In this document: positions 23,436 through 46,232 of the stretch, piece by piece
How positions within the stretch are numbered: position 1 is the first letter of the stretch
Layout of the letters: each line of letters starts with the position of its first letter
NCBI GenBank assembly: GCA_002703645.1
Contig: NZUX01000033.1
Span: 1,942 to 65,941, forward strand
Direction of reading: 5' to 3'
Origin: Fidelibacterota bacterium
GTDB lineage: Bacteria; Fidelibacterota; Marinisomatia; SCGC-AAA003-L08; D37C17
Length of the DNA stretch: 64,000 nucleotides
Translations under genes and position numbers: made by a program
Notes under the pieces: generated by a model
Database searches by the model: none
What the model saw: the letters and a program-made list of their open reading frames with translations, nothing else
Told to the model about the DNA's origin: nothing

Positions 23436-23780
23436 ATGAAAACTACAGTTTACCATAACCCTAGATGAAGTAAGAGCAGGAATTCGGTTCGAATTCTAGA
23501 AGAAAAAAAAATTGATTACAAAATTATAGAATATCTAAAAAATCCTTTAAGTGTTAATGAATTAGAAAACATTCTTAACATTCTTAAACTAAAGCCAATT
23601 GATATTATTAGAAAAACGGAAGCAGATTATAAAGAAAATAAAATTAATTTAATCAAAAATGATAATGAACTCTTAATGGCAATAATAAAATTCCCTAAAA
23701 TACTTCAACGACCAATTATATTAAATGGGAACAAGGGAGTAATTGGTAGGCCCCCTGAAAATATTTTATCAATAATTTAA
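23436..23780 (+). CDS. ArsC/YfgD-family thiol reductase with an in-frame UGA (probable selenocysteine) at the catalytic Cys position
   Basis: Manual translation gives MKTTVYHNPR-U-SKSRNSVRILEEKKIDYKIIEYLKNP...FPKILQRPIILNGNKGVIGRPPENILSII (114 aa). I align it to the YHNPRCSKSR...RPIV...GRPPE..L pattern of the E. coli ArsC/YfgD family. The TGA at 23466-23468 replaces the Cys codon. The ORF is absent from the ORF track. Confidence 0.85.
23480..23496 (+). promoter_or_regulatory. bacterial SECIS-like hairpin
   Basis: GAATTCG-GTT-CGAATTC is a 7-bp perfect stem with a G/U-containing apical loop. It starts 11 nt after the UGA, which matches the bacterial SECIS spacing as I recall it from fdhF. Confidence 0.6.
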
Positions 23781-23787: not shown

Positions 23788-26259
23788 CTATCTAACAAAA
23801 AACCTTAAGCCATGCGTTTGGCTAAGTTCATTAATCAAAGGAAGTCCATAAGGATCCTCATGATCTGTATTAAATATATATTGAACCCCTTCATTTTTAT
23901 CTGGAGATTCAATACCTATAGTAACGCCATGGTCGTCAACATTATATATTTCTTTATATTGAAATACAATTTCACCATCACCTCCATTTGTGCCTTCAAG
24001 AATAATATTTAATATAGCCATAATATCAAAAATATCTATATTGTCATCACCATTTAAATCTGAATCTACTAATTCAGTGGGACTAGGGTTGTGTATATCT
24101 AAAATAATATTAAGGACCAACATAATATCAAAAATATCTATATTCAAATCTTCATTAACATCTCCATTAGAACTATATTCACTTGGATATAATATTAATT
24201 GAAACGTTTCTTTTTTACATTCTTCTGGATCTGGGGCATCACCATTATCTAAACAGTATTCATCAACATGTCCATTTGCAAGATTATCCCATTGAATTAC
24301 AAAAGCCTGTTCCTCTTCAATCCATTGCGAATAAACATTAAATGGTTCTGTTCCACCATTATCATCTAAGTCATCATAGAAAGGAGCTAGTAATCCATAA
24401 GGCCCAATAGGGAAGGTTATAGAATTATTATAAAAGTAACTTAAAGCATCACATTCTTGATTATCATTAGTATTACCATCTAAACAAGGAATAAATGAGG
24501 CCCAACCATTAGAACATACTGTTAAATTTGAAAAAGTTTGACCATAATATTGAAAATCAAACCCTAAATCAATAGTAGTATTTGTATCATCTACTAAGTT
24601 TAGATTAGTCCCCGTATCTGATATCTCATACCAATAATATGGAATAGCTTCCATAACATATCCATAATCACTCTGCTCTTCCATATCACCAAATTCTGTA
24701 GCATTATATGTCTCATTTAAATCTTCATCATAATTAATTAGATATTCCTTCTGATAATATTGCGATCTATTAATATATAGATTGAGATTAGAGCTAGGTT
24801 CTACTCCATCAAAATCAATACCTAGTTCTCCATACTCATTTGATAAACCCTTAGCAATTAGCTCTCCATTATACATAAGAGCCCCAACTGCATCTTTTAA
24901 TGGATTTCCAAATTCATCTTCAACAATCACATTTAAAAAAGAATTATCAATATTATAAGATTCATCAATACCATCTAAATACAACTCATTAGGCTCTTTC
25001 AGCCAAACGCTTAAGCTTGCATCACCAAGAACACCATAAACATGATGATAAAATTCTCCAATATCAGTTCCATTTATCTCAAGACCTTCAAATTCTTGAG
25101 CTACAGCTTGCTTCCCTGTATGTAATGCAGGGCCTATTTCACTTTGTCTACCCTCCAAATAGTCATCCCACATCGCTCCACATAACACATTATTAAATCG
25201 CGTATCTGTATCTAAATCAGAAGGACCAACCATCGCAACTGCACCTTTTGGAGCATTTATGGTCCCTGCAGTTATTAATTTTTCCCCAAAACAAAAAACT
25301 TGTGATTCATTTCCAAAGTCACCAGTATTACACACAAAACTAAATACTACTGGCATGGAGAATGTTGGGTTTAATAAACTTTCAATTTCATCTAAACGGA
25401 ATTGTGGTTTATGCCAACCTCTAGCATCCCCCCATCCTCGATAATTAACAATACCAATACCATTATTCCATGACTCTTCTATCTGATCGGGACTAGTAGC
25501 CCAATCATAATTCCACTTATGAAAGAATGCACTATCGACACTTGAATATCCATATGCAAATAATTCTTCTTGAACCCATTTTGATGTCCAAACAGGTGTC
25601 ACAGGCCAATTTTGTGGTGATGTTCCCTCTCCACTATAATTTCCAGCTACGACTAAAGCATTATTTAAATAGCTAGGGTCTGGAACATATGGAAAATCTA
25701 ACTTAGCATAATGAATGTTTCGATTTATAATATTAGATAAATCTGTAGCGCTTCCAATAGACCATCTACCTAGAAAAAAATGTGGTTCTAGCATATTTTC
25801 TCCTTGACCATCATTGATATCAAAAAATGTATATGGATAATCTGTTTGATCATTTTCAGCTTCATTGTACGATGGAATCTCATATGTCGGAATATTATAG
25901 TTATCATTATTCTGATTAACGTCACCAACAAGAAGGACATACTCAAGCATTGGGTCTTGCTCATAAAAGCTAATCAAATAATTTCTAAGATCATCATTCG
26001 TATTACCGTTAATTCCTTCAATCTCTGAATTTCCAGATCTAAATGAAACAACCGTAACATCATATCCTTGAGTCTTTTTTAAATTAATAAAAGTTTCTAA
26101 GGAAGAATTATTAAGATCAGAGTTAGATAGGACAATAAGATATGTCCCTCTGGCAAACTCTGAATCTCTATATTTATTTATATTCTTTTTGGCTAGAGGA
26201 ACTAGCTCACTAAATAAAGTTGAGGCTAATACAAATACTAATAAAATCACTTTTCTCAA
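23788..26259 (-). CDS. gingipain-like peptidase C25 family protein (canonical His absent) with an internal dockerin near the C-terminus
   Basis: Signal peptide. YVLLVGDVN...IPTY, DYPY, and IVNYRGWGDARGW...VVFSFVCNTGDF align to the RgpB segment LVNYTGHGSETAW...IFDVACVNGDF. Dockerin repeats are DVNEDLNIDIFDIMLVLNIIL and DLNGDDNIDIFDIMAILNIIL. Confidence 0.8.
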   Translation of the reverse strand: MRKVILLVFVLASTLFSELVPLAKKNINKYRDSEFARGTYLIVLSNSDLNNSSLETFINLKKTQGYDVTVVSFRSGNSEIEGINGNTNDDLRNYLISFYEQDPMLEYVLLVGDVNQNNDNYNIPTYEIPSYNEAENDQTDYPYTFFDINDGQGENMLEPHFFLGRWSIGSATDLSNIINRNIHYAKLDFPYVPDPSYLNNALVVAGNYSGEGTSPQNWPVTPVWTSKWVQEELFAYGYSSVDSAFFHKWNYDWATSPDQIEESWNNGIGIVNYRGWGDARGWHKPQFRLDEIESLLNPTFSMPVVFSFVCNTGDFGNESQVFCFGEKLITAGTINAPKGAVAMVGPSDLDTDTRFNNVLCGAMWDDYLEGRQSEIGPALHTGKQAVAQEFEGLEINGTDIGEFYHHVYGVLGDASLSVWLKEPNELYLDGIDESYNIDNSFLNVIVEDEFGNPLKDAVGALMYNGELIAKGLSNEYGELGIDFDGVEPSSNLNLYINRSQYYQKEYLINYDEDLNETYNATEFGDMEEQSDYGYVMEAIPYYWYEISDTGTNLNLVDDTNTTIDLGFDFQYYGQTFSNLTVCSNGWASFIPCLDGNTNDNQECDALSYFYNNSITFPIGPYGLLAPFYDDLDDNGGTEPFNVYSQWIEEEQAFVIQWDNLANGHVDEYCLDNGDAPDPEECKKETFQLILYPSEYSSNGDVNEDLNIDIFDIMLVLNIILDIHNPSPTELVDSDLNGDDNIDIFDIMAILNIILEGTNGGDGEIVFQYKEIYNVDDHGVTIGIESPDKNEGVQYIFNTDHEDPYGLPLINELSQTHGLRFFVR

Positions 26260-26263
26260 AAAA

Positions 26264-28540
26264 TTAATCTCCTATAATTTGATTTACAATACCTACAATA
26301 TCTAAAATATCTAGATTATCATCTATATTATAATCTCCACTGCACAACTGAAAACCCGATGCAATCTGATTATCTAAAATAATATTTAATAAAGCTACAA
26401 TATCAGTTACAATTATATCTCCATCATGGTTAAGGTCACCCCTATAGCAACTATAGTCTGGATTATAGAGTAATTTTAATGCATCCATAGATATTCCTCT
26501 ATAGCTAATTGTAATATCTGACATAATCCCTAAACTAATAACATTATTTGAATTGACATCTAAATTAACTGACTTGTAGTATGTACTATCTACCCAATTT
26601 TGATTTGAAAAGGATAGCACTCTTGAGCTCCCTTGACTATTTACAATATCAACAAAGAGAGTATCGTTATCCCATTCTAGCTCATATTTCATATCAAAAA
26701 CTAGTACAGCATTATCTATATCCGAATAAATCTCTTCATTAGAATTGATTTGAATAGGACCTAAAGGAGTAAAGTCGGGATAAGTTAAACTGTATTGAGA
26801 TTTTAAGCGTCCATCATCAGAGTGCCAATCCCCTAAAACAATATCCCATTTATTTAAATCATCAAATTCATCTAAAAATAAATAATCGTACCAATCTAAT
26901 GATATCAAAAACTCAGAGTTTGAATTTATAGCTATATCTTCTACATGTGGAAAAATATCATTTGATAGTATAGTAAAATTATATTCACCTTCAGGAATTG
27001 ATAGCACATTTGATCCAGGGTAAACTTCAATTTCATGATTAAAATATTCATTACTCATTTTTAGAAGAATTTCATCTGAATGATTAGCCGGAACATCAAT
27101 ATTAATAATCACTTCATATTCAGGCTTAGGCTCCAATAAAATATTAATTTCACTTACAATATCAGCACTGGGAATTAAATCTAAATATTCAAAATCATAA
27201 TAACCATGTTTGCTAAAAGTTATATCAAATGAATCTAAGTATAGTAGTCGTCTATATCGACCAAAATCATCAGTTAATCTAGGTGCTAAAATTCCACCAT
27301 CCATCTGATGAATCACAACATCCACACCCTCTAATGGCATACCAGTCATACTATCAGAAACAATACCCGTTACTTGATACTTATCTGGACCTGTTGGATA
27401 GTTTATCCCAGCAGCTCTCTTCATCAGGTAATATGCTCCCGGAAGATTTCTTTCAATAGTATTCTCTATCATTTCAGCATCTGGCTGCATATCTTCAGTG
27501 CCTACTTCAATTAAATATTGAATACATCCAGCCTGAGAATATGTCCAATCATGAGCATTACCTTTCATGGAGCCACTAGCTGCAAAATGATAATTCCCAT
27601 CACCAAATTCAACTAAAGTAAGTTCTGCAATTTGCTGGCCTAATGGCTGAATCACTTGATAGTCTGGAGAAATTTTTCCCCCTGGCCACAATGAAGAATA
27701 AATAACCCTTTCAGCAACACATCCAGATCTTGAGCTATGATATGCTATTGATAGTAAAAAATCATAAGTTTCTACTAAATTTTTAATGGCTACAACCTCA
27801 CTTTCAGAAAAAGGAGCCTCACCTCTATAATAGTCAAAGTTTGAAACATAAGAAGGGTTAGATGGACAACCTGAATCTGTTTCTCCAAATTCATCTCCAA
27901 AAATCCAATTTAAGCCATAATTTCTATTTAAATCTACCCCATCAATATCATTACCATATCCATTTAAATGATCATAATCAAATACGCCATTATGATTTGC
28001 ATCCATTTTATTTTTTCTATAACTAACATCCTGTATCCATTCACCATTTTCTTCATATCCATGAACCACCTCTAAACCCTCCGGATTATAAGTAGGGACA
28101 ATCCAAACCTCAGATGAATATAAAATTCCAGCTAAAGTCTGAAAATCAGACGGGAATTCTTCAGGATGTAAAAATCTATAAATAAGCTCCATTGAAATTT
28201 CAACTCCAAGAATTTCTTCTGCATGACATTGACCTAAAATCAATACTCTAGGCTGATCTTCATCTACATCAGCATTAAAGGATAGTTTTACAGCCCAAAA
28301 AGGCATCTCCTCTAATTCAGAAGTACCTATTTCTATTAGCTTATATATAGTACCACTATTAGGATAGGGTGAAGACATACTACCATATTCTCCAAATTGA
28401 TCATCCCAAATATGTAAAATAGAATCTATTTCTTCATAGGTATGATATCTCTCAGATAAGGGACTCTCTGAGAATAAAAATTCAGTTGAAATTAATCCAA
28501 TAAGTATATAAAGGAAAAACGTATTAAAACTATTTTTCAT
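26264..28540 (-). CDS. M14 zinc carboxypeptidase with a CarboxypepD_reg-like domain and a C-terminal dockerin
   Basis: GQCHAEEILG (HxxE), GVDLNRNY, SIAYHS and YLIEVG motifs. QVTGIVSDSMTGMPLEGVDV marks the regulatory-like domain. The C-terminus has GDLNHDGDIIVTDIVALLNIIL and GDYNIDDNLDILDIVGIVNQII. Confidence 0.85.
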   Translation of the reverse strand: MKNSFNTFFLYILIGLISTEFLFSESPLSERYHTYEEIDSILHIWDDQFGEYGSMSSPYPNSGTIYKLIEIGTSELEEMPFWAVKLSFNADVDEDQPRVLILGQCHAEEILGVEISMELIYRFLHPEEFPSDFQTLAGILYSSEVWIVPTYNPEGLEVVHGYEENGEWIQDVSYRKNKMDANHNGVFDYDHLNGYGNDIDGVDLNRNYGLNWIFGDEFGETDSGCPSNPSYVSNFDYYRGEAPFSESEVVAIKNLVETYDFLLSIAYHSSRSGCVAERVIYSSLWPGGKISPDYQVIQPLGQQIAELTLVEFGDGNYHFAASGSMKGNAHDWTYSQAGCIQYLIEVGTEDMQPDAEMIENTIERNLPGAYYLMKRAAGINYPTGPDKYQVTGIVSDSMTGMPLEGVDVVIHQMDGGILAPRLTDDFGRYRRLLYLDSFDITFSKHGYYDFEYLDLIPSADIVSEINILLEPKPEYEVIINIDVPANHSDEILLKMSNEYFNHEIEVYPGSNVLSIPEGEYNFTILSNDIFPHVEDIAINSNSEFLISLDWYDYLFLDEFDDLNKWDIVLGDWHSDDGRLKSQYSLTYPDFTPLGPIQINSNEEIYSDIDNAVLVFDMKYELEWDNDTLFVDIVNSQGSSRVLSFSNQNWVDSTYYKSVNLDVNSNNVISLGIMSDITISYRGISMDALKLLYNPDYSCYRGDLNHDGDIIVTDIVALLNIILDNQIASGFQLCSGDYNIDDNLDILDIVGIVNQIIGD

Positions 28541-31515
28541 TATGGATTAAGAATAGCGTTAACAGTTGAAACTACATCAAGAACGTCAATATTATCATCA
28601 CTATTAACATCTGCAGCGCAACTTTGGTAGTTATCTGGAATTAAGTTACCAAGCACGATGTTAACCATTTGAACAACATCAAGAACATCTACATTTGAAT
28701 CAGCATTTACATCAAATAATGTACAATCTGAATCAGATGGAGTAATTAATTGAGCGTAGATATTAGTTAAGAGCTCTTTACCTGTACTTCTATCATCTTC
28801 CCAAAATGCTAAATATAAATTATCTTCTTCTGATAAAACTCCAAATCTAATATTAACTTGGCCAAAGGGGTCTGTCGATAGTGGAATTCCACCTTCCTCA
28901 TAAACTATACCATTTGAATTTATTTCTTGGTAGTAAGCATCCCATTCGAAAGATAAATTTAAACTTTGATCTATTCCTTGAGCGCTCCTCATATCTTCCC
29001 AGCCTATCATATAATTCCCTGACTGTGTTGAAAAGACTGATGGATTTTGCTGTTGACTACCTTCAATTGCAGCTACTTCAATCTCTTCTGAAATTATTAA
29101 ATCACCTTCTAAAACTGATAAATTTGCACACAAAATATTTAAATCAACGATTTCTTCACCCTCTTCATTATTAAACGTCTCCCTTCCATCATTCCAGCAA
29201 GCTAAATATTCATCTAAAAATTGATTATATGTGATTCTAGAACTTCTTTGATCATTAACTTCATCAGATATAATGTAGCTAGCACCATTACCAAAATTAT
29301 TACCATCAAATGAAAATACTTGAGCATACACTCCAGCTGAGAGTGAGCTTGATGAAGATTTATAAGTTACAATAAACTCATTATCACCAGAAGCGTAAGA
29401 TTCGTATTGAGGATCATTACAATCTGAGCAGACTTGACTTGATGAATATGGTGCTCCATTTTCATCAACAAATATAGCATTTAGTCCAACACCCATAAAG
29501 CTAGCAGATTCATAAATAACAACAACACCTCCATTAATTGGATTTGGGATAACTGCTTTCACTAGATTGTCCTCAAAACTAGCTTCAACAATATTAATGG
29601 GCGATGACCACTGAGCTATTCCATCAGCATTATATTTTTGCAAAAAGATACCATATGCAAAATTAAGACTTGAATATGCTAAATAATACATATCATCAAC
29701 TGTACATACGCCTGAATACTTTTGATCATTACCTTGACTATCAATTTCTTGGCCAGAATCACTACCTATAATATCTAAATTATAATCTAACATTTGATAG
29801 TATTGTCTATATGGCCCGTCATACTGATGAAAGTTCATCATAATTGAGCTGCTACTTTTAGCTAATTTAGCTCTAAAATCATAATTACCACCATGAGGTC
29901 CTTGGAAAGGGTTAAAACAAAGAGGCTCTGCTTCTTGATGGGATGCTATATTCATATTTTCATTTACTGATAATCCATACGTATAAGAACCAGGATGCCC
30001 AGTACTAAGATAGCGATTATCTTCCCATGCTACTAAATGCTCCCCATCCTCTATATATAGAGAGCTACTTAAAAGAGCATTTCCATCTACCCCGTACCAA
30101 ACCTCTTGTCCATTATTTGTAAAGCTTGTACCATCAGCAACTGTAACTTTTTGAAGCTCAACAATAATCGAAGAACCTTCCTTGCGGTCATTCCAAATAA
30201 TATAAGCTTCTCCTGACTGATTACATTTTATGAGCGGATCTACTTGAGGACCAGAATCTTCATCTAAAACTAAGCCAGATGGAGCAAATGATAAATCACC
30301 TGATGAGCTAATATGCTCAAGATATATATCAGACCCAGCCCACTCTATATTATCATCACCTCTTCCATCAATCCACGCAAAAAAAGCACCACCATTATTA
30401 TCCACAGTCATTCTAACCTGATCTTGATCATTAGGATCTGAAATTACCTGGACACCATTATTAGTCCATAATAAATTTCCTTGAGTATCCATTTTTTGAA
30501 CAAATGGGTCAACATTATTAAACCTTTTATCTTCCCAATAAATAAATGCATGAACACCATCAGTTTTAACTCTAGGAGAAGCTTGCTGCCCAGTATCATC
30601 ACAAACTATAATACCATCTTCACTTAATAAAGAGTTACCACTTTCATCTAAAATTTGCGCATACACATCACCATCTGGATCATTTCTTAAATCTCTCCAT
30701 ACTACTGCTACATTATTATCATTAAAAGTAGTAACCTTCGCTTTACTTTGAATTCCCTCAGCATCACAAATTGTTTTGCCACTATCTCCACCATCATCAT
30801 TCCATAAGGACTCCATATTTTGATTAATTCTTTGAGCTCTTAAATCAGATTGATCTCCATCTACACTTTGAGTCCAAACCATTACTGCTTCACCATTACC
30901 GGCATACTCAAGACTAAATCCACCATTTTGATATGAAGAAACAAGCACGCCAACTCCTTGCGCTATAATATCCGATTGGTTAGGCCCTAAATGAGTTCCA
31001 ACATATGTACCAGAACCATTTTTATCAACCCATAAAGCATAGGCACCACCATTTCCATCTACGCAAAGATTGTGACTTGATTGCTCTCCAGATTGATTTG
31101 AAAGGGGAACTCCGTTAGGATCCCATAATCTATTTCCATTTGCATCTATATGCTGACCATATATATCTCCATAATAATTCTCATCTCTATAATCTCTCCA
31201 AATAATATATGCACCACCATTGCCATCTCTAACTAAAAGAGGATCCTCTTGACGTCCTTCAAAATCAGCAACCACGGCTCCACCTTCACCCCAAAGATAA
31301 TTACCATCTGAGTCAATCTTCTGAGCATAAATGTCTCTAATTGCATTTCTGGTATCTGACCATGCAATAATCATACTACCATCTTCACTAACATCTCCAG
31401 TCCTCTGCCATTCAATATGGACCCCTTGCCTAATAGGAAGCCCCCCATCCTGCCATGAAAACTGTGCAAACCCTAAAGTAACACCTGCTATTAATACTAA
31501 TAATCTGTAAATCAT
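28540..31515 (-). CDS. secreted repeat protein (about 55-aa DIYAQ...GN.LW blades) with a C-terminal dockerin
   Basis: Signal peptide. At least 6 repeats of D(I/V)Y(A/G)Q.(I/L)D..GN.LW...G(V/I)....Q..P....DG.GGA..(I/A)W.D. The C-terminus has DVNADSNVDVLDVVQMVNIVL and DVNSDDNIDVLDVVSTVNAIL. Confidence 0.6.
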   Translation of the reverse strand: MIYRLLVLIAGVTLGFAQFSWQDGGLPIRQGVHIEWQRTGDVSEDGSMIIAWSDTRNAIRDIYAQKIDSDGNYLWGEGGAVVADFEGRQEDPLLVRDGNGGAYIIWRDYRDENYYGDIYGQHIDANGNRLWDPNGVPLSNQSGEQSSHNLCVDGNGGAYALWVDKNGSGTYVGTHLGPNQSDIIAQGVGVLVSSYQNGGFSLEYAGNGEAVMVWTQSVDGDQSDLRAQRINQNMESLWNDDGGDSGKTICDAEGIQSKAKVTTFNDNNVAVVWRDLRNDPDGDVYAQILDESGNSLLSEDGIIVCDDTGQQASPRVKTDGVHAFIYWEDKRFNNVDPFVQKMDTQGNLLWTNNGVQVISDPNDQDQVRMTVDNNGGAFFAWIDGRGDDNIEWAGSDIYLEHISSSGDLSFAPSGLVLDEDSGPQVDPLIKCNQSGEAYIIWNDRKEGSSIIVELQKVTVADGTSFTNNGQEVWYGVDGNALLSSSLYIEDGEHLVAWEDNRYLSTGHPGSYTYGLSVNENMNIASHQEAEPLCFNPFQGPHGGNYDFRAKLAKSSSSIMMNFHQYDGPYRQYYQMLDYNLDIIGSDSGQEIDSQGNDQKYSGVCTVDDMYYLAYSSLNFAYGIFLQKYNADGIAQWSSPINIVEASFEDNLVKAVIPNPINGGVVVIYESASFMGVGLNAIFVDENGAPYSSSQVCSDCNDPQYESYASGDNEFIVTYKSSSSSLSAGVYAQVFSFDGNNFGNGASYIISDEVNDQRSSRITYNQFLDEYLACWNDGRETFNNEEGEEIVDLNILCANLSVLEGDLIISEEIEVAAIEGSQQQNPSVFSTQSGNYMIGWEDMRSAQGIDQSLNLSFEWDAYYQEINSNGIVYEEGGIPLSTDPFGQVNIRFGVLSEEDNLYLAFWEDDRSTGKELLTNIYAQLITPSDSDCTLFDVNADSNVDVLDVVQMVNIVLGNLIPDNYQSCAADVNSDDNIDVLDVVSTVNAILNP

Positions 31516-32799: not shown

Positions 32800-32809
32800 T
32801 TATACTCCT

Positions 32810-33907
32810 CTAAAAAAGAAAATCTAAGTGTGTATTAAAAACAATTTTATATATAAACTCTAATTTTTCAAAACTTTTTAAATCTGAAACAGTAGTTGGA
32901 TACGGAGTATCTGTACCTCCAAAATAATTAACCCTAAAATCAGAAAAAACATTTCTATCCCTATGCTTTATTTTAAATTGATGCGATAAATTATCATTAA
33001 TTTTTTTCTCTAACCAAAAAGATAAATTATACTCGATATGCTTTCGACCTGCATGGATAGGGTCATCCAATGATTCTTCATTGTAAGCTCTATTTTTAAT
33101 AACTGATGATACTCCAAATCTATCTATTAGAGATATTGATTTAATTCTTTTATTAGCACTATAACCAAATGTGTATTCTTTATACGACCTATCATAAAGA
33201 GATGATTCATAACCTGAATTATAAGATATATTATCTCCTATTGCATAAGATACCCAGAATGAATTATTCATCCTAAAATAGCTAGAGTTTAATCTAAAAT
33301 GCCATTGATCAATTACGGTATCATACTCAGTAAAATCGATATTATAGTAAAGATTTGTTCTAGTATACTTCACTCTTGCCCATATTTTTTTTACTATTGG
33401 ATTTGAGAACGAAATTATAAATGATTCAGAAGAGAAAATACATTCAGAATAGTTTTTATCATTTGAGTCATGATCAATATAGTTTCTAAGATAATATTCA
33501 GGTAAATATCTATGAGAAAATTTCAACCATCTGTATGATCCTAACTTAACTCCAAATTCTGTGTAAATAATATTGTAAGATTTTTCAGTTGCTCCAAAAT
33601 AATGATTCCTTAGCAATGAAAAATTAAATTGAGTCTTATTTTTTTTTATCAAATGAGGACTATAGCTAATACTTATTTTGGGAACCATATAGCTAGCATC
33701 AAATGTATCTGAATTAATAATAGGAATAGTATTTTGAAATTGAAATTCTTTTTCAAAATCTGATAACCTAAATATATTACTATCATAGCCAGTAGACAAA
33801 GAGTAGGTTGTATATATAGGAACATTAAGTCTCTCTAAAAAAGCTTGAGACATTAGAGATGAAGTCATAGCAAAAAGTAGAAAAACGATAACTCTACTAT
33901 TTGTCAT
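32810..33907 (-). CDS. putative outer-membrane beta-barrel protein
   Basis: Signal peptide, alternating amphipathic beta-strand pattern rich in Y/S/N/F, and a C-terminal ...HLDFLF with terminal Phe. Confidence 0.5.
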   Translation of the reverse strand: MTNSRVIVFLLFAMTSSLMSQAFLERLNVPIYTTYSLSTGYDSNIFRLSDFEKEFQFQNTIPIINSDTFDASYMVPKISISYSPHLIKKNKTQFNFSLLRNHYFGATEKSYNIIYTEFGVKLGSYRWLKFSHRYLPEYYLRNYIDHDSNDKNYSECIFSSESFIISFSNPIVKKIWARVKYTRTNLYYNIDFTEYDTVIDQWHFRLNSSYFRMNNSFWVSYAIGDNISYNSGYESSLYDRSYKEYTFGYSANKRIKSISLIDRFGVSSVIKNRAYNEESLDDPIHAGRKHIEYNLSFWLEKKINDNLSHQFKIKHRDRNVFSDFRVNYFGGTDTPYPTTVSDLKSFEKLEFIYKIVFNTHLDFLF

Positions 33908-34790
33908 ACTGCTTTACCTTTAAATAAATTGGCTTATTCTTATTAGATAAATCACCTCTTCTTACTGTATAGTAATGTTTGCCTTTAGGAACATTGATCC
34001 AGCACGTCTTCCACTTACCCACTTTTTCTTTTGATGTTTTTAAGTAACTTATATTAGATGCATCTGAGTTAAAGGAGTAAGTTCCAATATCTAAACCATC
34101 TTCTTTTACAAATAAAGTGTAATTATTTTCATCTAAGTTTAAAGATGGATTACCTAAACGAGTAAAAATTCTTATTGATGTCGGACCCTCTACTTCAAAT
34201 TGATATTCATTTTTCTTTGATGAAAGTTTATACCAATAGCTCGATTTACTTTCTCCTTTAGCCCTTTTTGTTTCAATAATATATTTTGATTCTTTATTAA
34301 TTGAGTTTAATCCTATAGAAGAATATTTATTTCTATTGATTTTACTGATCTGAGATCTCACAATTATATTTTTATTACCAGTAATTTTAATATTTTGAAA
34401 TTCACTAGCAAGCATATCTACAAACCAGATACCAGGTTGTGTAGGAACTCTTCCATATTTACCTTTTATATTCAGCTTACTTTTTGGCTTTATATAACGA
34501 AGAGTTCTAGATGACTTATCATTTAATTTTAATTTGATTTTAAAATCTTCTTTACCCTTTGATTCAGAGGGTGTAACAGCTCTTATGAAAAATTTTATTC
34601 TAACTGAATCACTATTAGAATACCCCTCACCCAAATCATTAAATTGAAGTCCATCTTTTTTAAAATGATAGTATATATATTCTTTCTTATCTTTATTAAG
34701 TATAATGGATGATCCATTAGTAGGAATTAATGTTTTTGAAAATATAAATGATAAGCAAAATAGAATTAAAATTTTATTCAACTGGTTCAT
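33897..34790 (-). CDS. secreted, strongly basic beta-rich protein of unknown function
   Basis: Signal peptide and a K-rich sequence. It overlaps both neighbouring genes. No known motif. Confidence 0.4.
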   Translation of the reverse strand: MNQLNKILILFCLSFIFSKTLIPTNGSSIILNKDKKEYIYYHFKKDGLQFNDLGEGYSNSDSVRIKFFIRAVTPSESKGKEDFKIKLKLNDKSSRTLRYIKPKSKLNIKGKYGRVPTQPGIWFVDMLASEFQNIKITGNKNIIVRSQISKINRNKYSSIGLNSINKESKYIIETKRAKGESKSSYWYKLSSKKNEYQFEVEGPTSIRIFTRLGNPSLNLDENNYTLFVKEDGLDIGTYSFNSDASNISYLKTSKEKVGKWKTCWINVPKGKHYYTVRRGDLSNKNKPIYLKVKQYDK

Positions 34791-35982
34791 TATGTATCTC
34801 TTCCATTTTTTTATTTACTTGTGATATGCTACTTAAAACGACCCATACTAAGGTTGATAGCGATATAATCAAACATAACCAAACTACCAATCTATGATGA
34901 GGAGTCCTTATGCCAAATAATTCACCAAATCCAACCTCCATACTCATTGAATTATAACTATCATCAGAATATGGCAGGTCATACCAATCACACAAGTTAT
35001 TAATATTTTTAATGTTAATCACAGGGATATTTAATTCTTCTGAAAACTTTTGTATTACAGGAATAATGTCATTTATATCCTTATCTATTAAATCCTCATC
35101 AAAAGCATTGTTAATTGCTTCTTCCATATCAGAATCTTTTTCAAGGTTTAAACCGGGTAAAAATAATCTCATGGTTGTAGAATCTCCTAAGCTTGCGGCA
35201 GATCCTCCTATACTTACATAAGCTTTATAATTTTTACTTTTTGCTAAATAAAGCTCCATTCTTTTTTCTATTGATTCAGATAGAGAAGATGATTCAATAA
35301 TACTATAATTATTATCCGCAATTCTCATTTTTAACAACTCTTTAATATCACTAGACAATTCATCTGCTCTATCCTGATCTCCCCCTAATGAAAAAGCTGA
35401 GCTTCTATATTCAAAGATATTACCATATAGATGATTCTCGATATCTGCCCATGTCATATTAATCTGATTAGCTCCCCATGAAGATGAACCAATTGAGCTA
35501 ATAATAACAGGATATATATTTACGGCTTTACAAGCAGCCAATAAAGCAATATTAGCCCCTGGAAATGAACCTGTATAACTTACAGCAATAGTATCTACTT
35601 TATTAGGATTCAGCAAAGATGAGTCGATCTCTGAAAATAATTGAATAAATAATGCTGAAAAATTAGGGTTTGTAACTGCTACCTTTGAATATAATGAGCC
35701 TTCTTTTGTAGTTATAGATGATGAAGTAGAATCAACACCTATAATTCCAGAATCAAATCTATCATACGATAAAGATTGGGTTGAAAGACTAGGAATCTTA
35801 TCATTAGAAAAGTTTTTTGTTGACCGCAATGCATCTTTCATGATTTGAGTAGATTTAATTTTAGCATCATAATGCTCAAATGCCTTGAACTCGTAGGATA
35901 TATAGGATATGTAAACTAATAGTAAATTAATAACTGCAACAAAAACTAAGACGCTTGTTCTTTTTATATATGGTCTAAACAT
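34774..35982 (-). CDS. poly-gamma-glutamate system partner protein (membrane-anchored at both ends)
   Basis: N- and C-terminal TM helices. It sits immediately after pgsC with an 8-nt overlap. As I recall, a 'poly-gamma-glutamate system protein' family replaces CapA next to PgsBC in some lineages. The assignment rests on context and size only. Confidence 0.45.
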   Translation of the reverse strand: MFRPYIKRTSVLVFVAVINLLLVYISYISYEFKAFEHYDAKIKSTQIMKDALRSTKNFSNDKIPSLSTQSLSYDRFDSGIIGVDSTSSSITTKEGSLYSKVAVTNPNFSALFIQLFSEIDSSLLNPNKVDTIAVSYTGSFPGANIALLAACKAVNIYPVIISSIGSSSWGANQINMTWADIENHLYGNIFEYRSSAFSLGGDQDRADELSSDIKELLKMRIADNNYSIIESSSLSESIEKRMELYLAKSKNYKAYVSIGGSAASLGDSTTMRLFLPGLNLEKDSDMEEAINNAFDEDLIDKDINDIIPVIQKFSEELNIPVINIKNINNLCDWYDLPYSDDSYNSMSMEVGFGELFGIRTPHHRLVVWLCLIISLSTLVWVVLSSISQVNKKMEEIHNEPVE

Positions 35983-36508
35983 ATTTACCTAAAACCATTA
36001 ATATTAAATTTATCAAACTTGAAATAATTAGAATTGTAGAAATTGTAGACAAGACTCCCTGTCTATCCATCCAACTAGATATAAGCCCTGGAATTAACCA
36101 GCCAATATAAATCATTTCTCCAGAATAACTTGCCAAAAAACTATTAAAATCATATAAACTAGTACTCATATAAACAATGAGATTAGATAGAAAAAAATCC
36201 CCACCAGGCTTATATGTTATAAAATATACAGGGATATCTCTAATAAAAGATCCTAGAGTAAAAGATAGAAGCAAACAAAATACTAATCTTCTTTTTCCAT
36301 ATATAATAATAAATCTTGATAGAAAATTGAGGATAAGCAAGGTTAGAAGACTAATACAAAAAGTGAATATCACAGCATAAGGGTTATGAAGTGAGAGAGC
36401 GATATAACCAGGAACAATAAGTCCTCCCGCTGTAACACCCACTGATTCAGTAAGTACTAAGCTAATAATCATACCCAACCCTATTGCTATAGCAGGATGA
36501 TCAAGCAT
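35975..36508 (-). CDS. pgsC: poly-gamma-glutamate biosynthesis protein PgsC/CapC
   Basis: TAGGLIVPGYIAL, IIYGKRRLVF and LIPGLISSWMDRQG parallel B. subtilis PgsC (PAGLVVPGYL, ILYGRRKF, IVPGLIAN). Confidence 0.9.
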   Translation of the reverse strand: MLDHPAIAIGLGMIISLVLTESVGVTAGGLIVPGYIALSLHNPYAVIFTFCISLLTLLILNFLSRFIIIYGKRRLVFCLLLSFTLGSFIRDIPVYFITYKPGGDFFLSNLIVYMSTSLYDFNSFLASYSGEMIYIGWLIPGLISSWMDRQGVLSTISTILIISSLINLILMVLGKYV

Positions 36509-37673
36509 TTTTAAACTCCCTTAATCGTTTTATAAAGCTTTCACCCCATCCAACTATATTACCAATACCAATTATAGCATAATCATCTAATTCTGACATT
36601 TTATTAATAATCAATCCCATATCATCATCATTTAAAAATAAGGAGAATTTAAGATTTTTATTATAATTAACTCTATCTGTAATATCACTATCTAAATTAT
36701 CACCTCTAATAATTAAGTAATCTGGAGCTATATCTTTAAACACCAGATCAAGAAGCTGTTGTGTTCTAAGCTGTCTATCAGTTCGAGTATTAAGGAAAAT
36801 AGCAATTTTTTTCTTGCCATTATAATGCTCTTTAATAATATCTAAAGTTCTAAGAGTTGAATTAGGATCATTTGCTGCAAAAGCATTAACAAAGTCAATA
36901 GATGATTTATTGATATTCAATTTAAGAATAGATAATGCCCCAGGGTCAGGGTTTGTATTTTTCATACCATTAATTGCATCTTTTTTGCTAACACCAACAC
37001 TCTGACAGACACCTAGAGCTAAAGCTATATTATCTGGATGTTCAATAAAGGGGAAACCTTCTAAATATTTTTTATTCATATACTTTGAATCACAAATATT
37101 AATTTCACTATTATTACTAATAGCTTTATTAATAATTGGAGCTACGGAATCTGTTTCTGAAGTGAATACTTTTTCATTTATCGGAATTGTATTAGATAAA
37201 GATTTTGCAATATGAGTATGACTATATCCCATTTCTTCAAGATGATCTGCTCTCACATTGGTAATCACACAATAATTTGATTGTAAAATTTTATGTTCTG
37301 ACACCCATTGATATTGAGGTTGGACTGCCATACATTCCATGACAATTGCCTTAGGCTTATATTTTGAAAATCGAGCGATCATTCTAATTTGTTCTCCAAT
37401 AGAGGCAGGCCTAAATCTTTGAATGATATGATCATCGCCTAAACTATCGATAAATCTCGGAGAAGATCCTGTGGTTTTAGCTACCGTTTGAATTCCTCCA
37501 CCTCTTAAACCAGCTGCTATTAATCGAGTAACACTAGACTTTCCTCTGGTACCATTAACATGAATTCTAATAGGGATTTTTCTGATTGCATTATTGTGTA
37601 ATTTAGATTCAACTAAACCTAGTAGAATTAATGTTAATAAAATAACAAGGAGTGAAAGAGTAACTACTGGCAA
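36501..37673 (-). CDS. pgsB: poly-gamma-glutamate synthase PgsB/CapB (Mur-ligase-like)
   Basis: N-terminal TM. IRIHVNGTRGKSSVTRL, IVMECMAVQPQYQ, NVRADHLEEMG and FAANDPNSTL parallel B. subtilis PgsB. Confidence 0.9.
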   Translation of the reverse strand: MPVVTLSLLVILLTLILLGLVESKLHNNAIRKIPIRIHVNGTRGKSSVTRLIAAGLRGGGIQTVAKTTGSSPRFIDSLGDDHIIQRFRPASIGEQIRMIARFSKYKPKAIVMECMAVQPQYQWVSEHKILQSNYCVITNVRADHLEEMGYSHTHIAKSLSNTIPINEKVFTSETDSVAPIINKAISNNSEINICDSKYMNKKYLEGFPFIEHPDNIALALGVCQSVGVSKKDAINGMKNTNPDPGALSILKLNINKSSIDFVNAFAANDPNSTLRTLDIIKEHYNGKKKIAIFLNTRTDRQLRTQQLLDLVFKDIAPDYLIIRGDNLDSDITDRVNYNKNLKFSLFLNDDDMGLIINKMSELDDYAIIGIGNIVGWGESFIKRLREFKNA

Positions 37674-37682
37674 TGTTAACCT

Positions 37683-40600
37683 TTAATATTCTAAAATTAA
37701 ATTAATCATCAAAATAACATCTAAAATATTAATAGTCCCATCTTCATCCATATCCGCAACAAATTGACTGATAGCATCCAGCTCTTCAATGACCAAAATA
37801 TGATTAATAACCATAATAATATCCAAAATATTAACTTCATCATCTTGATTAACATCTCCAGAAGAAAGCACTGTAGTATTTCTAGTTGTAATAAATATCG
37901 CACTTTCATCTTGTAAGTGAGCTGCAGCATCAGGATATTTATTATCAAAAGTATATTCTAAACCAACTGTTGCTTGATGATTCTCTATACCTACAGTAGA
38001 ATAGCAACCATGATATGGAGTATATTGAGAATAATCACCATTCGTGGTATTATTAAATTCTTTATACTGAATTTTAATTTCATCATCCCCTGTTGGAGTT
38101 ATAGAATTGTATAAAATAACTTGAAACGTCTGAATATCATTATGCTGTTTTGTAAGCATATTAGACCATTCAATAATAACATAATCTTCATTTAAATATT
38201 TAAATACTTTCGAATTTTGACTTCCTGTAGTTTTCAAATCATCCCAAAATGCTGCGACCATTGGAGATGGTCCTCCTGGGCCTGGCAATTGATAATTTCT
38301 AAAAGACTCCATATTTGAATGACCAAATGCTATCCAACCATTTGCACTAACAGAAATTTCGTCATAATCTTCTCCATAAAATGTAAATATAAAAGGAAGA
38401 TCAACATATTTAGTACTATTAACTACACTACCATCTCCATTACCTGAGTGCTCAATACCTAAATCTACCCCTTCTCCCCCTTGACTGGGATCAATTTCAA
38501 TCCAATCATAAAAGGGCATTAAACTATAGCCAATATCTGTCCAATCATATATGTAGTATCCATATGAATCAGGACCGAGGGGGTCGTGTTCATCTGCAAC
38601 TCCAACAGTGATATTTAAATTAATATCCTGATTAAACCCACTATTATTATATATATTAATATTAAAATTAAATACAGAGCCATCAATAATGTCTTCTCCA
38701 AATTCAATAACTAATGGATTTAAAATAACTTGTGATTGACCGGGATAAATATCACCAATGAATGCTTCATCCTGAATGAAATTAATCAATGAACTAGCAA
38801 TATCGATACTTATATAAGAATCTATCAACTCTTGTTCCCCTGTATTGGTAAAAACAAAATCAAGCTCCACTATATCACCAGGGTTAGGCATAACAGTTAC
38901 AGGCATAAGATTAATATTTGGAGATATAACATCAAACGGAACATTAAAACTCCAGCCATCATTCATATCGCTATTATTGATAGTTAAATTTAAATCTAAT
39001 AAATCGCTAGCTATTAAATCTTCATGTATATATATCTCGATAGGCCCTACTGTAGTTGGTATAAAAGGTGATAAATTATCTATAGTAAAAGTATCATCCA
39101 AAATATCTAATTTATCTGAATTGGTTGATACATGCCCTTCTAAAGAAGAAATTGATGAAGTTGAAAGGTTATCTAAATTAAAAAAGATATTTACAATTTC
39201 ACCTGGCTGCGCAATACCATCAATAGAATTTTGGTTCTCCGGATTATCATCATAAACATAAAACATCGTTTGTTGATTGATCTGAATATTTGCACTTTCA
39301 GAGTCTACTAAAATTAAATCACTAAAAGGAATGTAATTGTCCTTAATAACAGTAATTTTAGCATTAGAGTCTATAGAGTTATCGCAATATATAGATGCAA
39401 ATCCATTTTCGTCTGTATAAGAATAATAGACTTCTTCTTCATCTATATAAATAACAACTCTCGCATCCCCTAGAGGCTGACCTTCATCGTCAACAATATT
39501 AACACTTATTAAATCAGTACCTATATTAATCGTTGACGGATATGAAACATTAATAGATTTTGGCGTGTCTGTCCATAAATGTAACACGGGGTCACCCATA
39601 AGGTTATTCCAGTGCGTAAATTTGTATGTCATTTGATAGGGATCTTCTGGATATGTATTATAGAGTGATAACTTACCATTTACAAGAGCAGCGCCAGCTG
39701 TTCTTAAATTTTTTGAAAAAATCCCATCATATATACCCATATCTAAAATATTATTAGGTACTGTATGAGTAGAGGATGTTGCTGTACCTACCGCAGCAAC
39801 ACCACCCTTAGGATTAGCTACAGAGCCCGCCCTAATAAAACTTTCTGATATAGCAGTGCCACTAAATCCACCGGTTGCGCATGTAATAAAAGTAACAAAA
39901 GGAGTCATATATCCATTGTTAGCATTATTAATATGAGATGAGCCAAAGCCACTTGTACCAATATACCCTCTATAATTAAAATAAAGTATACCTTCTTCTA
40001 AACGATTTTGCATCCAACTACTATAACTACATACATAGCATGTTTCAATATCATTAAAATCAAATGCATTTAACATATTTTCTACGTATTCATTAGTTAT
40101 TATAGCTGAGTTTCCAGTTGCAGATGGATCACCAACAAGCGCTGCGCTTTCATACCAATTTGTTCCAGTATAATCAATAAAAGTAGCTTTTTCATATGCT
40201 AATGTTTTATTTATTATATTTGATAAATCACTAGAGCTATTTGCTGAAATTCTTCCAATAAACATTTCTGGCAACAAATCATTTCCATCAATTAATGTAT
40301 AAGGATAATCACTTTCTCCTCCAGACGCATTTGAATATCCTACTTGATAGCTTCCACCCGTATCCCCAACCAAAACTATATACTCTGGCGGATACTCCCA
40401 TGTATAGTAAGCATTTTCTATATAGCTTTTAATTGAACTTTGACTTGTTCCTGTTGCACTCGTATTGGCAGTATACACTTTATAGCCTTGCTCTCTTCTC
40501 CATTGCACTAAATCTTGAAAATAACTATTGGAAGCAGAGCTTCCACCACATATATATAGTATAGAACCAAAATCATCTACAACTCTACTACTAACATCAA

Positions 40601-41138
40601 GATTAACAACCATGCTCTCTAGCAGTTTCTCAAATTCTCTTGATATGGGAACAACGTGATTGCCATCTGATTCATTGAAATTTTCTTCTTCTAAAATGAA
40701 TATTTCAACTTCTTCAATAACTTCAAGAGATTTGTTTTCATAGTCATATTGGATAGGAAAATATAAAATCTTAGCCAAATCAACGCCTCGCATAGTCATC
40801 GTCTCAGAAAAACTAAAATTATCAACTATAGATTGATCTAATTCTATATTAACATCAGAGATATGGTAAGATTCAGTAATATTATACGATATAGAATAAT
40901 CAATATTATTATCAACCATATATAAAGCTGAAAATGGTTTAATACCTATATCATATAAAAAATCTACGTCTACATGATACTGATTATTCAGCTTTTCTAA
41001 TAAATCATTATCATCAATATCAACATTAACAGTTAAGCTTTTCAAGGCTTGATTAAAATTATAATTATACGCGTTCGCATTATCATCTATTGAAAAAGCA
41101 ACATTAAATAAAAAAATCAAAGCAACAATCTTTGGCAT
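37683..41138 (-). CDS. gingipain-like peptidase C25 family protein (canonical His absent) with a C-terminal dockerin
   Basis: The likely start is ATG at 41138 (MPKIVALIFLFNVAFS signal peptide, AAGGGG RBS 5 nt upstream) rather than the track start at 41186. YIVLVGD, DYPY and FNYRGYIGTSGFGSSH...FITCATGGF are present. The C-terminus has DVNQDDEVNILDIIMVINHIL and DMDEDGTINILDVILMINLIL. Confidence 0.8.
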   Translation of the reverse strand: MPKIVALIFLFNVAFSIDDNANAYNYNFNQALKSLTVNVDIDDNDLLEKLNNQYHVDVDFLYDIGIKPFSALYMVDNNIDYSISYNITESYHISDVNIELDQSIVDNFSFSETMTMRGVDLAKILYFPIQYDYENKSLEVIEEVEIFILEEENFNESDGNHVVPISREFEKLLESMVVNLDVSSRVVDDFGSILYICGGSSASNSYFQDLVQWRREQGYKVYTANTSATGTSQSSIKSYIENAYYTWEYPPEYIVLVGDTGGSYQVGYSNASGGESDYPYTLIDGNDLLPEMFIGRISANSSSDLSNIINKTLAYEKATFIDYTGTNWYESAALVGDPSATGNSAIITNEYVENMLNAFDFNDIETCYVCSYSSWMQNRLEEGILYFNYRGYIGTSGFGSSHINNANNGYMTPFVTFITCATGGFSGTAISESFIRAGSVANPKGGVAAVGTATSSTHTVPNNILDMGIYDGIFSKNLRTAGAALVNGKLSLYNTYPEDPYQMTYKFTHWNNLMGDPVLHLWTDTPKSINVSYPSTINIGTDLISVNIVDDEGQPLGDARVVIYIDEEEVYYSYTDENGFASIYCDNSIDSNAKITVIKDNYIPFSDLILVDSESANIQINQQTMFYVYDDNPENQNSIDGIAQPGEIVNIFFNLDNLSTSSISSLEGHVSTNSDKLDILDDTFTIDNLSPFIPTTVGPIEIYIHEDLIASDLLDLNLTINNSDMNDGWSFNVPFDVISPNINLMPVTVMPNPGDIVELDFVFTNTGEQELIDSYISIDIASSLINFIQDEAFIGDIYPGQSQVILNPLVIEFGEDIIDGSVFNFNINIYNNSGFNQDINLNITVGVADEHDPLGPDSYGYYIYDWTDIGYSLMPFYDWIEIDPSQGGEGVDLGIEHSGNGDGSVVNSTKYVDLPFIFTFYGEDYDEISVSANGWIAFGHSNMESFRNYQLPGPGGPSPMVAAFWDDLKTTGSQNSKVFKYLNEDYVIIEWSNMLTKQHNDIQTFQVILYNSITPTGDDEIKIQYKEFNNTTNGDYSQYTPYHGCYSTVGIENHQATVGLEYTFDNKYPDAAAHLQDESAIFITTRNTTVLSSGDVNQDDEVNILDIIMVINHILVIEELDAISQFVADMDEDGTINILDVILMINLILEY

Positions 41139-41242
41139 AAGATCCCCTTTAGTTTTAAATAGTTTAGATACAAAGAATTTAATCAAAATAGAAGAACTAT
41201 CTAAGATAACTTTGTTACAACTTGTAATGCAAATAAAAATGC

Positions 41243-41264
41243 TTATGTAGTAATTATGTAGTAA
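41243..41264. promoter_or_regulatory. perfect tandem 11-bp direct repeat (TTATGTAGTAA x2) in the divergent control region
   Basis: Read directly at 41243-41253 and 41254-41264. A 6-1-6 palindrome TTACAA-C-TTGTAA lies at 41215-41227. Confidence 0.4.
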
Positions 41265-41386
41265 GTTCTCGATATTTTTTTATTTATAATTTATTCAAAA
41301 TTATAGTTAGCTAATTTTATAGATTTTAATAAATTAGGGGATACCAAAATTTTTATATATAAAATCTAATTAAGGAGATTAAAACT

Positions 41387-41806: not shown

Positions 41807-41809
41807 ATT

Positions 41810-42868: not shown

Positions 42869-42872
42869 TTCA

Positions 42873-46222: not shown

Positions 46223-46232
46223 GGAAATAATA

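Follow-up and report, generated by a model that had tools for sequence, protein, structure and literature searches.

The poly-gamma-glutamate (PGA) systems described in Bacillus, pgsBCAE and capBCADE, have adjacent, overlapping genes for PgsB and PgsC, and loci of this type are flanked by a gene for a gamma-glutamyltransferase or an NlpC/P60 hydrolase. The present study concerns a ten-gene locus (g1 to g10, listed below) on the minus strand, from position 41138 to 23788, of a 64,000-nt stretch of contig NZUX01000033.1 from a Fidelibacterota bacterium (assembly GCA_002703645.1), this whole stretch being referred to as the window. The locus shares with the Bacillus systems the adjacent, overlapping genes for PgsB and PgsC, both at equivalog-level scores, but in other respects it differs from them. 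A protein of family TIGR04332 (g4) follows PgsC, no PgsE or CapD was found here, and neither PgsA/CapA (PGA_cap) nor a gamma-glutamyltransferase was found in the ten proteins or the other window open reading frames (ORFs) that were scanned. The host has two membranes, genes for a predicted outer-membrane barrel, a lipoprotein and a basic, putatively periplasmic protein are present, and the flanks are occupied by genes for surface proteins.

37683 to 41138, minus strand: g1, C25-like secreted protein (Pfam Peptidase_C25 and Dockerin_1)
36501 to 37673, minus strand: g2, PgsB (TIGR04012)
35975 to 36508, minus strand: g3, PgsC (TIGR04011, Caps_synth_CapC)
34774 to 35982, minus strand: g4, poly-gamma-glutamate system protein (TIGR04332)
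33897 to 34790, minus strand: g5, basic secreted protein, predicted tandem beta-sandwich (isoelectric point, AlphaFold2 model)
32810 to 33907, minus strand: g6, predicted outer-membrane beta-barrel (AlphaFold2 model, Foldseek)
31516 to 32799, minus strand: g7, acidic lipoprotein (lipobox LFSC)
28540 to 31515, minus strand: g8, 991-aa secreted repeat protein (W-x-D-x-R repeats, Dockerin_1)
26264 to 28540, minus strand: g9, M14 metallocarboxypeptidase (Pfam Peptidase_M14, CarboxypepD_reg)
23788 to 26259, minus strand: g10, second C25-like protein, 823 aa (Pfam Peptidase_C25 and Dockerin_1)

The same three-gene core of PgsB, PgsC and a TIGR04332 protein occurs in Firmicutes, Actinomycetota, Omnitrophota, Zixibacteria, KSB1 and Cloacimonadota. 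Outside Gemmatimonadota and the FCB group (the Fibrobacterota-Chlorobiota-Bacteroidota superphylum) it is found without g1 and g5 to g10, the loci of Firmicutes, Actinomycetota and Omnitrophota consisting of PgsB-PgsC-g4 only, whereas in the present locus it is extended and nested among other genes. The overall logic is that of the Pga, Bcs and Alg exopolymer systems, with an inner-membrane synthase, a periplasmic polymer binder, an outer-membrane beta-barrel and an enzyme that modifies or cuts the polymer made by its own operon. Judged by its predicted model, g6 is a dedicated outer-membrane barrel encoded together with the synthase, and this model resembles the PgaA barrel among others, while that of g5 resembles BcsB. 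Unlike those systems, however, the product here would be a polyamide and not a polysaccharide, no sequence homology to them was detected, and a tetratricopeptide repeat scaffold is lacking.

The components of the locus are already known. In the part available to us of a study of metagenome-assembled genomes (MAGs) from Ace Lake that belong to Cloacimonadota, a related phylum, polyglutamate synthesis genes were inferred and dockerin-tagged C25 peptidases were read, separately, as a cellulosome-like degradative complex; the capsule and this complex are treated apart from each other, with no description of Marinimicrobia, of candidates for export, of nesting within an operon or of a missing catalytic His (Williams et al. 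2021, PMC8542988). One organism of that study, Tenebribacter davisii, is represented in our comparison (L064) and has two C25 genes upstream of pgsB. Our searches turned up no paper that connects polyglutamate to Marinimicrobia (SAR406), or any of C25, dockerin or M14 proteins to pgsB. A first-pass annotation of this DNA had known of no described locus of this kind, and we likewise found no description of the composite, its parts being known separately (PMC8542988). What appears to be undescribed is the nested, multi-phylum locus itself, its candidates for export through the outer membrane, the disappearance of the catalytic His throughout a C25 subfamily, and the exchange of dockerin-like and type IX secretion domains on the same proteins.

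Gene Organization and Boundaries

The ORF list bears out the first-pass description of a ten-gene minus-strand array in which neighbouring genes overlap or lie no more than 10 nt apart. The genes are consecutive from 41138 to 23788, and successive junctions from g1 to g10 measure +9, -8, -8, -17, -11, +10, 0, -1 and +4 nt. The longest ORF of g1 (37683-41186, 1167 aa) opens at a TTG at 41186; the ATG at 41138 has a Shine-Dalgarno-like motif, AAAGGGG, just upstream, is the start used in the public gene call (1151 aa), and is most likely the true one. Terminator-like hairpins, all weak, were found at five sites in a scan of 19.5 kb, against 6.6 expected in shuffled sequences, and none lies at a gene junction, in agreement with the earlier remark that no terminator was visible. 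A scan for sigma-70 promoters gave 145 matches against 118 expected, and is uninformative in DNA as AT-rich as this (30% GC). The ten-gene unit has clear boundaries because a divergent type IV pilus-like operon lies upstream and a convergent gene downstream, the latter (23436-23780, plus strand) stopping 7 nt from the last stop codon of g10. The only plausible place for the main promoter of the cluster is a candidate region between the divergent genes:

41139 to 41386, no strand assigned: divergent intergenic region between g1 and the pilin gene, candidate site of the main cluster promoter

With all ten genes on one strand, no gap above 10 nt and no internal terminator, the spacing suggests that they form an operon.

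Synteny and Modular Structure

Synteny among relatives had been proposed as a check on the cluster, and the gene order proved to be retained far beyond close relatives. All window proteins were compared against 80 loci, one genome per GTDB species, that had been fetched with a g4 profile. The order C25 - PgsB - PgsC - g4 - g5 - g6 - (g7) - g8 - M14 - C25 recurs across Marinimicrobia, in about 40 species and at g4 identities down to 30-37%, with median intergenic gaps across loci of -20 to +26 nt; where BLAST misses g7, a gap of about 1050 nt occupies its slot. The window itself is Marinimicrobia (SAR406) DNA: the nearest loci from taxon-labelled genomes belong to Candidatus Neomarinimicrobiota (SAR406). 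Homologues are also present in Tara Oceans data. A C25 gene ends less than 400 nt from pgsB in 41 of the 51 loci with sufficient upstream sequence, and g8 and the M14 gene lie downstream in 28 of the 38 with sufficient downstream sequence. Nine of the ten exceptions carry no Marinimicrobia label. A complete genome of Gemmatimonadota (CP070758), to which the C25 protein alone had led, reads C25 - PgsB - PgsC - g4 - g5 - g6 - LVIVD protein - propeller with dockerin, which is the same nested arrangement in a second phylum.

The locus can be divided into two modules, with module A comprising g2 to g7 (pgsB, pgsC, the TIGR04332 gene, g5, g6 and g7) and module B comprising g1, g8, g9 and g10. In Marinimicrobia, module A is nested inside module B, and the tenth exception mentioned above, locus L032, is a member of this group that has module A alone. 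Module B is a unit of its own, because it is also found without adjacent pgs genes. A Cloacimonadia contig (L083, 4476-13501) has g8 - M14 - C25, all bearing type IX sorting domains, and lacks pgs genes within 10 kb. An uncultured genome (L086, 1-17542) has the same, again with no pgs gene within 10 kb, together with a g1-like C25 gene directly before the g8 homologue, as though module A were missing from the place it normally takes. An M14 - C25 pair with an LVIVD protein and a g8-like protein is present on a further contig (P0213). The context of seven cluster representatives, selected by C25 similarity alone, was examined with tblastn, and three of these C25 genes stand alone.

In other lineages of the FCB group, g5- and g6-sized ORFs follow g4, and PGA loci are flanked by exoproteins, several of them with type IX tags: in Zixibacteria these are M14 and M1, in a Bacteroidota MAG S51, and in locus L070 C25 and C69. 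This suggests that polyglutamate genes and surface exopeptidases are a recurrent pairing. Examples of the flanking exopeptidases are found at L053:1334-5609, L081:11020-13116 and L070:16373-18025; S51 is the cyanophycinase family.

The Polyglutamate Core and Candidate Export Proteins

Both synthase assignments made in the first pass stand above the curated NCBIfam cut-offs. PgsB (g2) matches the equivalog TIGR04012 with 400.6 bits (cut-off 222.7), also matches Mur_ligase_M, and combines an N-terminal transmembrane segment with the P-loop GTRGKS. PgsC (g3), whose gene overlaps pgsB by 8 nt, scores 121.2 bits with TIGR04011 (cut-off 96.45) and 95 bits with Caps_synth_CapC. The membrane partner that had been predicted to follow pgsC is the TIGR04332 protein g4 (230 bits, cut-off 100), with hydrophobic segments at both ends and in the position that PgsA occupies in Bacillus. 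Homologues of g4 number 291 and adjoin PgsB-PgsC wherever flanking sequence exists among the 80 loci, which cover many phyla; a search of the PDB by sequence, including one with the g4 profile, returned no solved homologue. From this gene content the product of the locus would be PGA.

The three remaining genes of module A encode proteins that match no family in Pfam (down to E=10) or NCBIfam. The description of g5 as a basic secreted protein is upheld by an isoelectric point (pI) of 9.9, the exoproteins of the cluster being near pI 4.05. Its AlphaFold2 model (predicted local distance difference test score, pLDDT, of 82) consists of two beta-sandwich domains of jelly-roll type, like those of carbohydrate-binding modules (CBMs). 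The TM-scores of its Foldseek matches, which are tandem CBM22, CBM-like domains and BcsB, are low (0.2-0.28). On the strength of this model and its charge, g5 is a candidate periplasmic binder of a polyanion. Its gene is absent from one clade of Marinimicrobia (L054-L062), of which L054, L057 and L062 have a longer g4 (about 450 aa; g4 at approximately 10001-11350), nothing between g4 and g6, and two tandem g1-like C25 genes upstream. The possibility that g5 is an obligatory, cohesin-like partner of the dockerins was considered and rejected, as the clade without g5 retains a dockerin-tagged g1.

In its AlphaFold2 model, g6 forms a beta-barrel with about 16 strands (pLDDT 80, predicted TM-score 0.78), and the protein has a signal peptide and a C-terminal Phe. 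Foldseek matches with porins, CymA, FadL, OmpG and the PgaA secretin barrel (E=5e-8; probability 1.0 for porins, CymA, FadL and PgaA) lend support to the earlier suggestion of an outer-membrane barrel. The gene comes after g5 in loci of Marinimicrobia, Gemmatimonadota and other FCB-group lineages, and its product is a candidate outer-membrane conduit for PGA. Of the earlier description of g7 as a beta-propeller lipoprotein, the second half is sound, since this acidic protein has the lipobox LFSC with a Cys (Cys14) that is invariant in nine orthologues, but the propeller fold could not be confirmed. No Pfam or PDB match was obtained, a g7 profile search of the PDB included. The g7 slot in L082 and L087 holds genes with LVIVD repeats, and an hhalign comparison of the g7 profile with the LVIVD protein in the Gemmatimonadota slot gave a probability of only 3.9%.

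To our knowledge no route for PGA across an outer membrane has been described, and a targeted literature search for one found nothing relevant. The proteins g5, g6 and g7, conserved in several phyla, are concrete candidates for PGA export in diderm bacteria.

C25-Like Proteins Lacking the Catalytic Histidine

Both g1 and g10 match Pfam Peptidase_C25 (PF01364), with 176 and 186 bits, respectively. In g1 a signal peptide and Ig-like domains accompany the C25 domain, which spans residues 217-536 of the 1167-aa ORF, and a NIDO-like region is weak (21.9 bits, below cut-off). Structures of gingipain R are matched by the C25-like proteins at E=5e-26 and 1e-14. In the alignment with gingipain R (RgpB, 1cvr), Cys244 is retained in g1 and His211 is replaced by Tyr; in the ungapped alignment of g10, the Cys is kept (VCN) and His211 is Trp (NYRGWGD). 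These states are conserved, as the motif NYRG[YF]...TCGTG in about 45 orthologues of g1 and as NYRGWGD...VCN in 22 orthologues of g10. The first-pass assignment to the gingipain family is therefore right as to the fold but not as to the Cys-His dyad, the His being gone in every orthologue.

A full HMMER search with the g10 domain against 1.84 billion cluster representatives gave 2122 matches at E<1e-3, of which 142 reached E<1e-30. None of the 150 nearest representatives has His at the catalytic position; with the query domains of g1 and g10 included, the residue there is Trp in 116, Phe in 18 and Tyr in seven. The Cys is kept in 145 of 152 aligned sequences, an Arg two residues upstream is equally conserved, and no other His that might substitute is conserved above 51% in the subfamily. 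Annotated members come from Cloacimonadota, Gemmatimonadota and Bacteroidota and are named 'C25 family cysteine peptidase' or 'T9SS type A sorting domain-containing protein'. The family of g1 and g10, as defined by these alignments, is a large and distinct C25 subfamily without the catalytic His, and because that residue is lacking in every orthologue, they are unlikely to be conventional cysteine endopeptidases. With gingipains and PorU they have in common the C25 fold and the nucleophilic Cys, and orthologues of the present proteins carry type IX sorting domains; they differ from both in having Tyr, Phe or Trp where the catalytic His would be, and in matching no PorU model. Assignment of g1 and g10 to PorU itself was rejected, as neither protein matched any NCBIfam family, the PorU model included, at E<=0.01, and phmmer did not retrieve the PorU structure (6za2) with g1 at E<=0.01 or with g10 at E<=1. 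Extracellular C25 peptidases have been counted in MAG surveys that include Marinimicrobia (e.g., PMC8359207). Given the size of the subfamily without His, some of the proteolytic potential deduced in this way may be misassigned.

Dockerin-Like and Type IX C-Terminal Domains

Dockerins had been reported on all four exoproteins of the cluster. For g1, g8 and g10 these are detected by Pfam (Dockerin_1, cut-off 22.9), with 47.4, 24.6 and 26.0 bits; that of g9 is not detected by Pfam even at E<=1, but its residues 698-756 match a hidden Markov model (HMM) built from the other three modules, with E=1e-17. No window ORF beyond these four matches the same HMM.

37686 to 37862, minus strand: dockerin-like module of g1 (Dockerin_1, E=2.3e-12; two Ca-binding-loop repeats, DxNxDxxVNILD)
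28543 to 28731, minus strand: dockerin-like module of g8, C-terminal (Dockerin_1)
26273 to 26449, minus strand: dockerin-like module of g9 (HMM built from the other three modules)
24001 to 24165, minus strand: dockerin-like module of g10, inserted within the C-terminal region (Dockerin_1)

Counting the orthologues whose 3' ends are intact, the dockerin-like and type IX tags are distributed as follows:

g1 orthologues: dockerin-like 38; type IX secretion C-terminal domain 9
g8 orthologues: dockerin-like 5; type IX secretion C-terminal domain 23
g9 orthologues: dockerin-like 5; type IX secretion C-terminal domain 18

By these counts the dockerin-like and type IX tags are interchangeable on the same proteins, and because they are, a shared role in surface delivery or tethering may be proposed for them. 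This points to general surface sorting or anchoring rather than to a cellulosome specifically. Within the window itself, a type IX sorting domain was found only on a 1247-aa protein (15993-19736). The modules share with the type I dockerins of cellulosomes the duplicated Ca-binding loop-helix motif, and the PDB dockerins 2ccl and 1ohz are matched by g1. In contrast to cellulosomal dockerins, they belong to a host that is not cellulolytic, alternate with type IX domains and, in g10, are internal, and the window proteins that were scanned yielded no cohesin partner, none being listed in the general domain scans. In the Gemmatimonadota locus (L082; 1-1192 and 9610-9965), a 117-aa protein that is little more than a dockerin is encoded directly upstream of the C25 gene, and a type IX-tagged protein with a faint cohesin match lies 9 kb away, a possible lead to a dockerin partner.

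The Repeat Protein g8 and the M14 Enzyme g9

The 991-aa protein g8 had been described as a repeat protein with a dockerin, and both elements are present. Its W-x-D-x-R motif occurs in about ten copies spaced at around 55 aa, which suggests that the repeats are blades of a beta-propeller. Outside the dockerin, nothing was matched in the main body by Pfam or NCBIfam, or by PDB searches with g8 alone and with its profile, and the C-terminus of the profile matches FlgD-Ig and Por sorting-domain structures in the PDB.

The earlier recognition of g9 as an M14 carboxypeptidase is confirmed by Pfam (Peptidase_M14, 106 bits; CarboxypepD_reg) and by an intact, conserved active site. Besides the catalytic domain, the protein has a transthyretin-like domain and a beta-rich region. 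In alignment with carboxypeptidase T, the HxxE, H, E, RKN and NRN motifs are conserved in 30 orthologues, so that the zinc ligands (HxxE...H), the catalytic Glu, Arg127 and Asn144-Arg145 are all present. The loop of the specificity pocket, S-[RM]-[RK]-G-N-A-H-D-W, is basic and conserved. As a marker of linkage to PGA this pocket motif was rejected, since it is identical in copies of module B that lack adjacent pgs genes. M14 enzymes that cleave gamma-glutamyl bonds exist. The PGA hydrolases PghL and PghP have the fold and the His/Glu/His zinc site of carboxypeptidases, and PghL replaces Arg127, Asn144 and Arg145 for recognition of PGA (PMC6506827). The likeness to g9, in which the M14 site is intact, is one of zinc carboxypeptidase chemistry, but g9 is a classical M14 enzyme with a transthyretin-like domain and without a PghP match, and its activity on gamma-PGA would be conjecture. 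An identification of g9 as PghP-type was rejected, as Peptidase_M14 and CarboxypepD_reg are its only matches and the classical residues are retained.

Possible Functions of the Locus

We favour, with a probability of roughly 0.55, the interpretation that this is a composite envelope locus in which module A makes and exports PGA and the surface proteins of module B bind or trim the polymer. In such a scheme, PgsB (an ATP-dependent amide ligase), PgsC and g4 would polymerise glutamate at the inner membrane, with g4 replacing PgsA; g5 would receive or bind the polyanion in the periplasm, and g6, together with the lipoprotein g7, would pass it through the outer membrane. The very acidic proteins of module B would be sorted or tethered at the cell surface by their C-terminal dockerin-like or type IX domains. 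Among them, g9 would most likely act as an exopeptidase with a basic specificity loop, trimming C-terminal glutamate from the polymer or from peptides, since from the side of the C-terminal residue a gamma-glutamyl amide looks like any carboxypeptidase substrate. The proteins g1 and g10, lacking the catalytic His, are most likely non-proteolytic and would serve in binding or anchoring. Several observations weigh against this scheme. The structural matches of g5 are poor and its gene is missing in the L054-L062 clade of Marinimicrobia, and the fold of g7 lacks support, homology with LVIVD proteins not having been upheld. The M14 enzyme keeps the three residues that PghL replaces; module B occurs in L083 and L086 without adjacent pgs genes and with the same M14 pocket motif, and the Marinimicrobia locus L032 has module A without module B. 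Because module B also occurs without adjacent pgs genes, its action on the polymer is plausible rather than established, and the pgs-free copies weaken this idea without removing it.

The main rival, which we consider possible but doubtful, is that module B is a general assembly for harvesting peptides and proteins, and that PGA is a co-regulated capsule or hydrogel that, for example, retains enzymes, cations or substrates near the cell and is not itself a substrate. It would account for module B standing alone in L083, L086 and the P0213 contig, for the different type IX-tagged exopeptidases that flank PGA loci of other FCB-group lineages, and for the classical substrate-anchoring residues of g9, and it accords with the degradative role proposed for dockerin-tagged C25 proteins of Cloacimonadota (PMC8542988). 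It sits poorly, however, with the C25-like proteins being without a catalytic His, by which half of the 'peptidase' content is probably inactive, and with the nesting of A in B, which two phyla share and which, despite very deep divergence, still shows junctions a few nt long. It is unlikely, though conceivable by analogy, that polyglutamate organises the surface protein system, the C25-like proteins, g8 and the barrel then corresponding to a PorU/PorZ/PorV complex. PGA might in that case stand in for anionic lipopolysaccharide (LPS), or Ca-loaded dockerin-like tags might hold proteins on PGA; if true, SAR406 cells would carry a peptide-polymer coat to which exoproteins are tethered.

Somewhat less credible is the proposal that the C25-like proteins are sortase-like transpeptidases joining surface proteins to PGA, or PGA to an acceptor in the envelope, with g8 as PorZ-like, the barrel as PorV- or PorQ-like, and PGA again in place of anionic LPS. 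PorU, a member of the C25 family, would be the precedent, and the conserved nucleophilic Cys, the combination of a PorU-sized C25 protein with a large repeat protein bearing a sorting domain and a FadL-like barrel, and the type IX cargo nature of the orthologues all fit. Yet the catalytic His is absent from every member with no conserved substitute, the NCBIfam models of PorU, PorV and PorQ are not matched, phmmer failed to retrieve PorU, and PorZ (5m11) is matched by the g8 profile in its C-terminal sorting domain alone (E=0.11). Rated lower again is the notion that a PgsB/PgsC-like ligase adds gamma-glutamyl chains to a lipid, glycan or protein, the flanking proteins handling the conjugate. 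PgsA is absent with an uncharacterised partner in its place, and in the literature we came upon no experimental work on TIGR04332-type systems, the name being mentioned only in passing, which would leave room for such chemistry; the equivalog-level scores of PgsB and PgsC and the naming of TIGR04332 for its association with PGA systems speak against it. That the ten genes are neighbours by chance or through an assembly artefact is hardly believable, as independent assemblies of several datasets yielded the same contig, an NCBI Candidatus Marinimicrobia MAG contains a g6 protein identical to the present one, and the order is kept in about 40 species and a second phylum.

In the dark ocean, SAR406 (Marinimicrobia) ranks with the most abundant of the bacterial groups that remain uncultured. 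A near-universal locus in this group for a nitrogen-rich polyanion would be of consequence for marine gels, for the binding of metals and other cations and for dissolved organic nitrogen, and would also bear on resistance to grazers or phages.

Neighbouring Genes

The convergent gene downstream of g10 (23436-23780, plus strand) is a 114-codon ORF with an in-frame TGA at 23466-23468, in the position of the catalytic Cys of ArsC/Spx-family proteins (VYHNPR-U-SKSR); with Cys substituted, it matches Pfam ArsC at 47 bits. A tRNA-Sec at 3152-3246 (minus strand) is the only Rfam match in the window, and an 8-bp hairpin begins 11 nt past the UGA, its stability being no greater than that of shuffled sequences. 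The gene probably encodes an ArsC-like selenoprotein. On the other side of the cluster, 41387-59118 (plus strand) holds a complete type IV pilus-like set, with pilin, two T2SSE ATPases, PilM/N/O, secretin, PilC and prepilin peptidase, together with a gene for a 1428-aa Big_1/MG4 protein. This set adjoins the polyglutamate cluster in 11 Marinimicrobia loci (e.g., L004-L006, L010, L017, L022, L026 and L074).

Beyond the ArsC-like gene, 19920-23315 (minus strand) encodes an AsnC/Lrp-type regulator, a short (342 aa) glutamine synthetase-like protein and a CitMHS/TrkA_C transporter, so that genes of glutamate and glutamine metabolism adjoin a locus for a glutamate polymer. The 1247-aa secreted protein encoded next to these (15993-19736, minus strand), already mentioned for its type IX sorting domain, has 62 Cys, only seven Lys and Arg against 202 Asp and Glu (pI about 4), and DUF4397 domains, and the local GC content rises to 0.37-0.38. 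Beside this type IX cargo gene, 13066-15877 (minus strand) encodes a GWxTD-domain protein and one of 543 aa whose match to the N-terminal propeller of PorZ stays below the threshold (23.4 bits against 27), and these genes may be related to type IX secretion.

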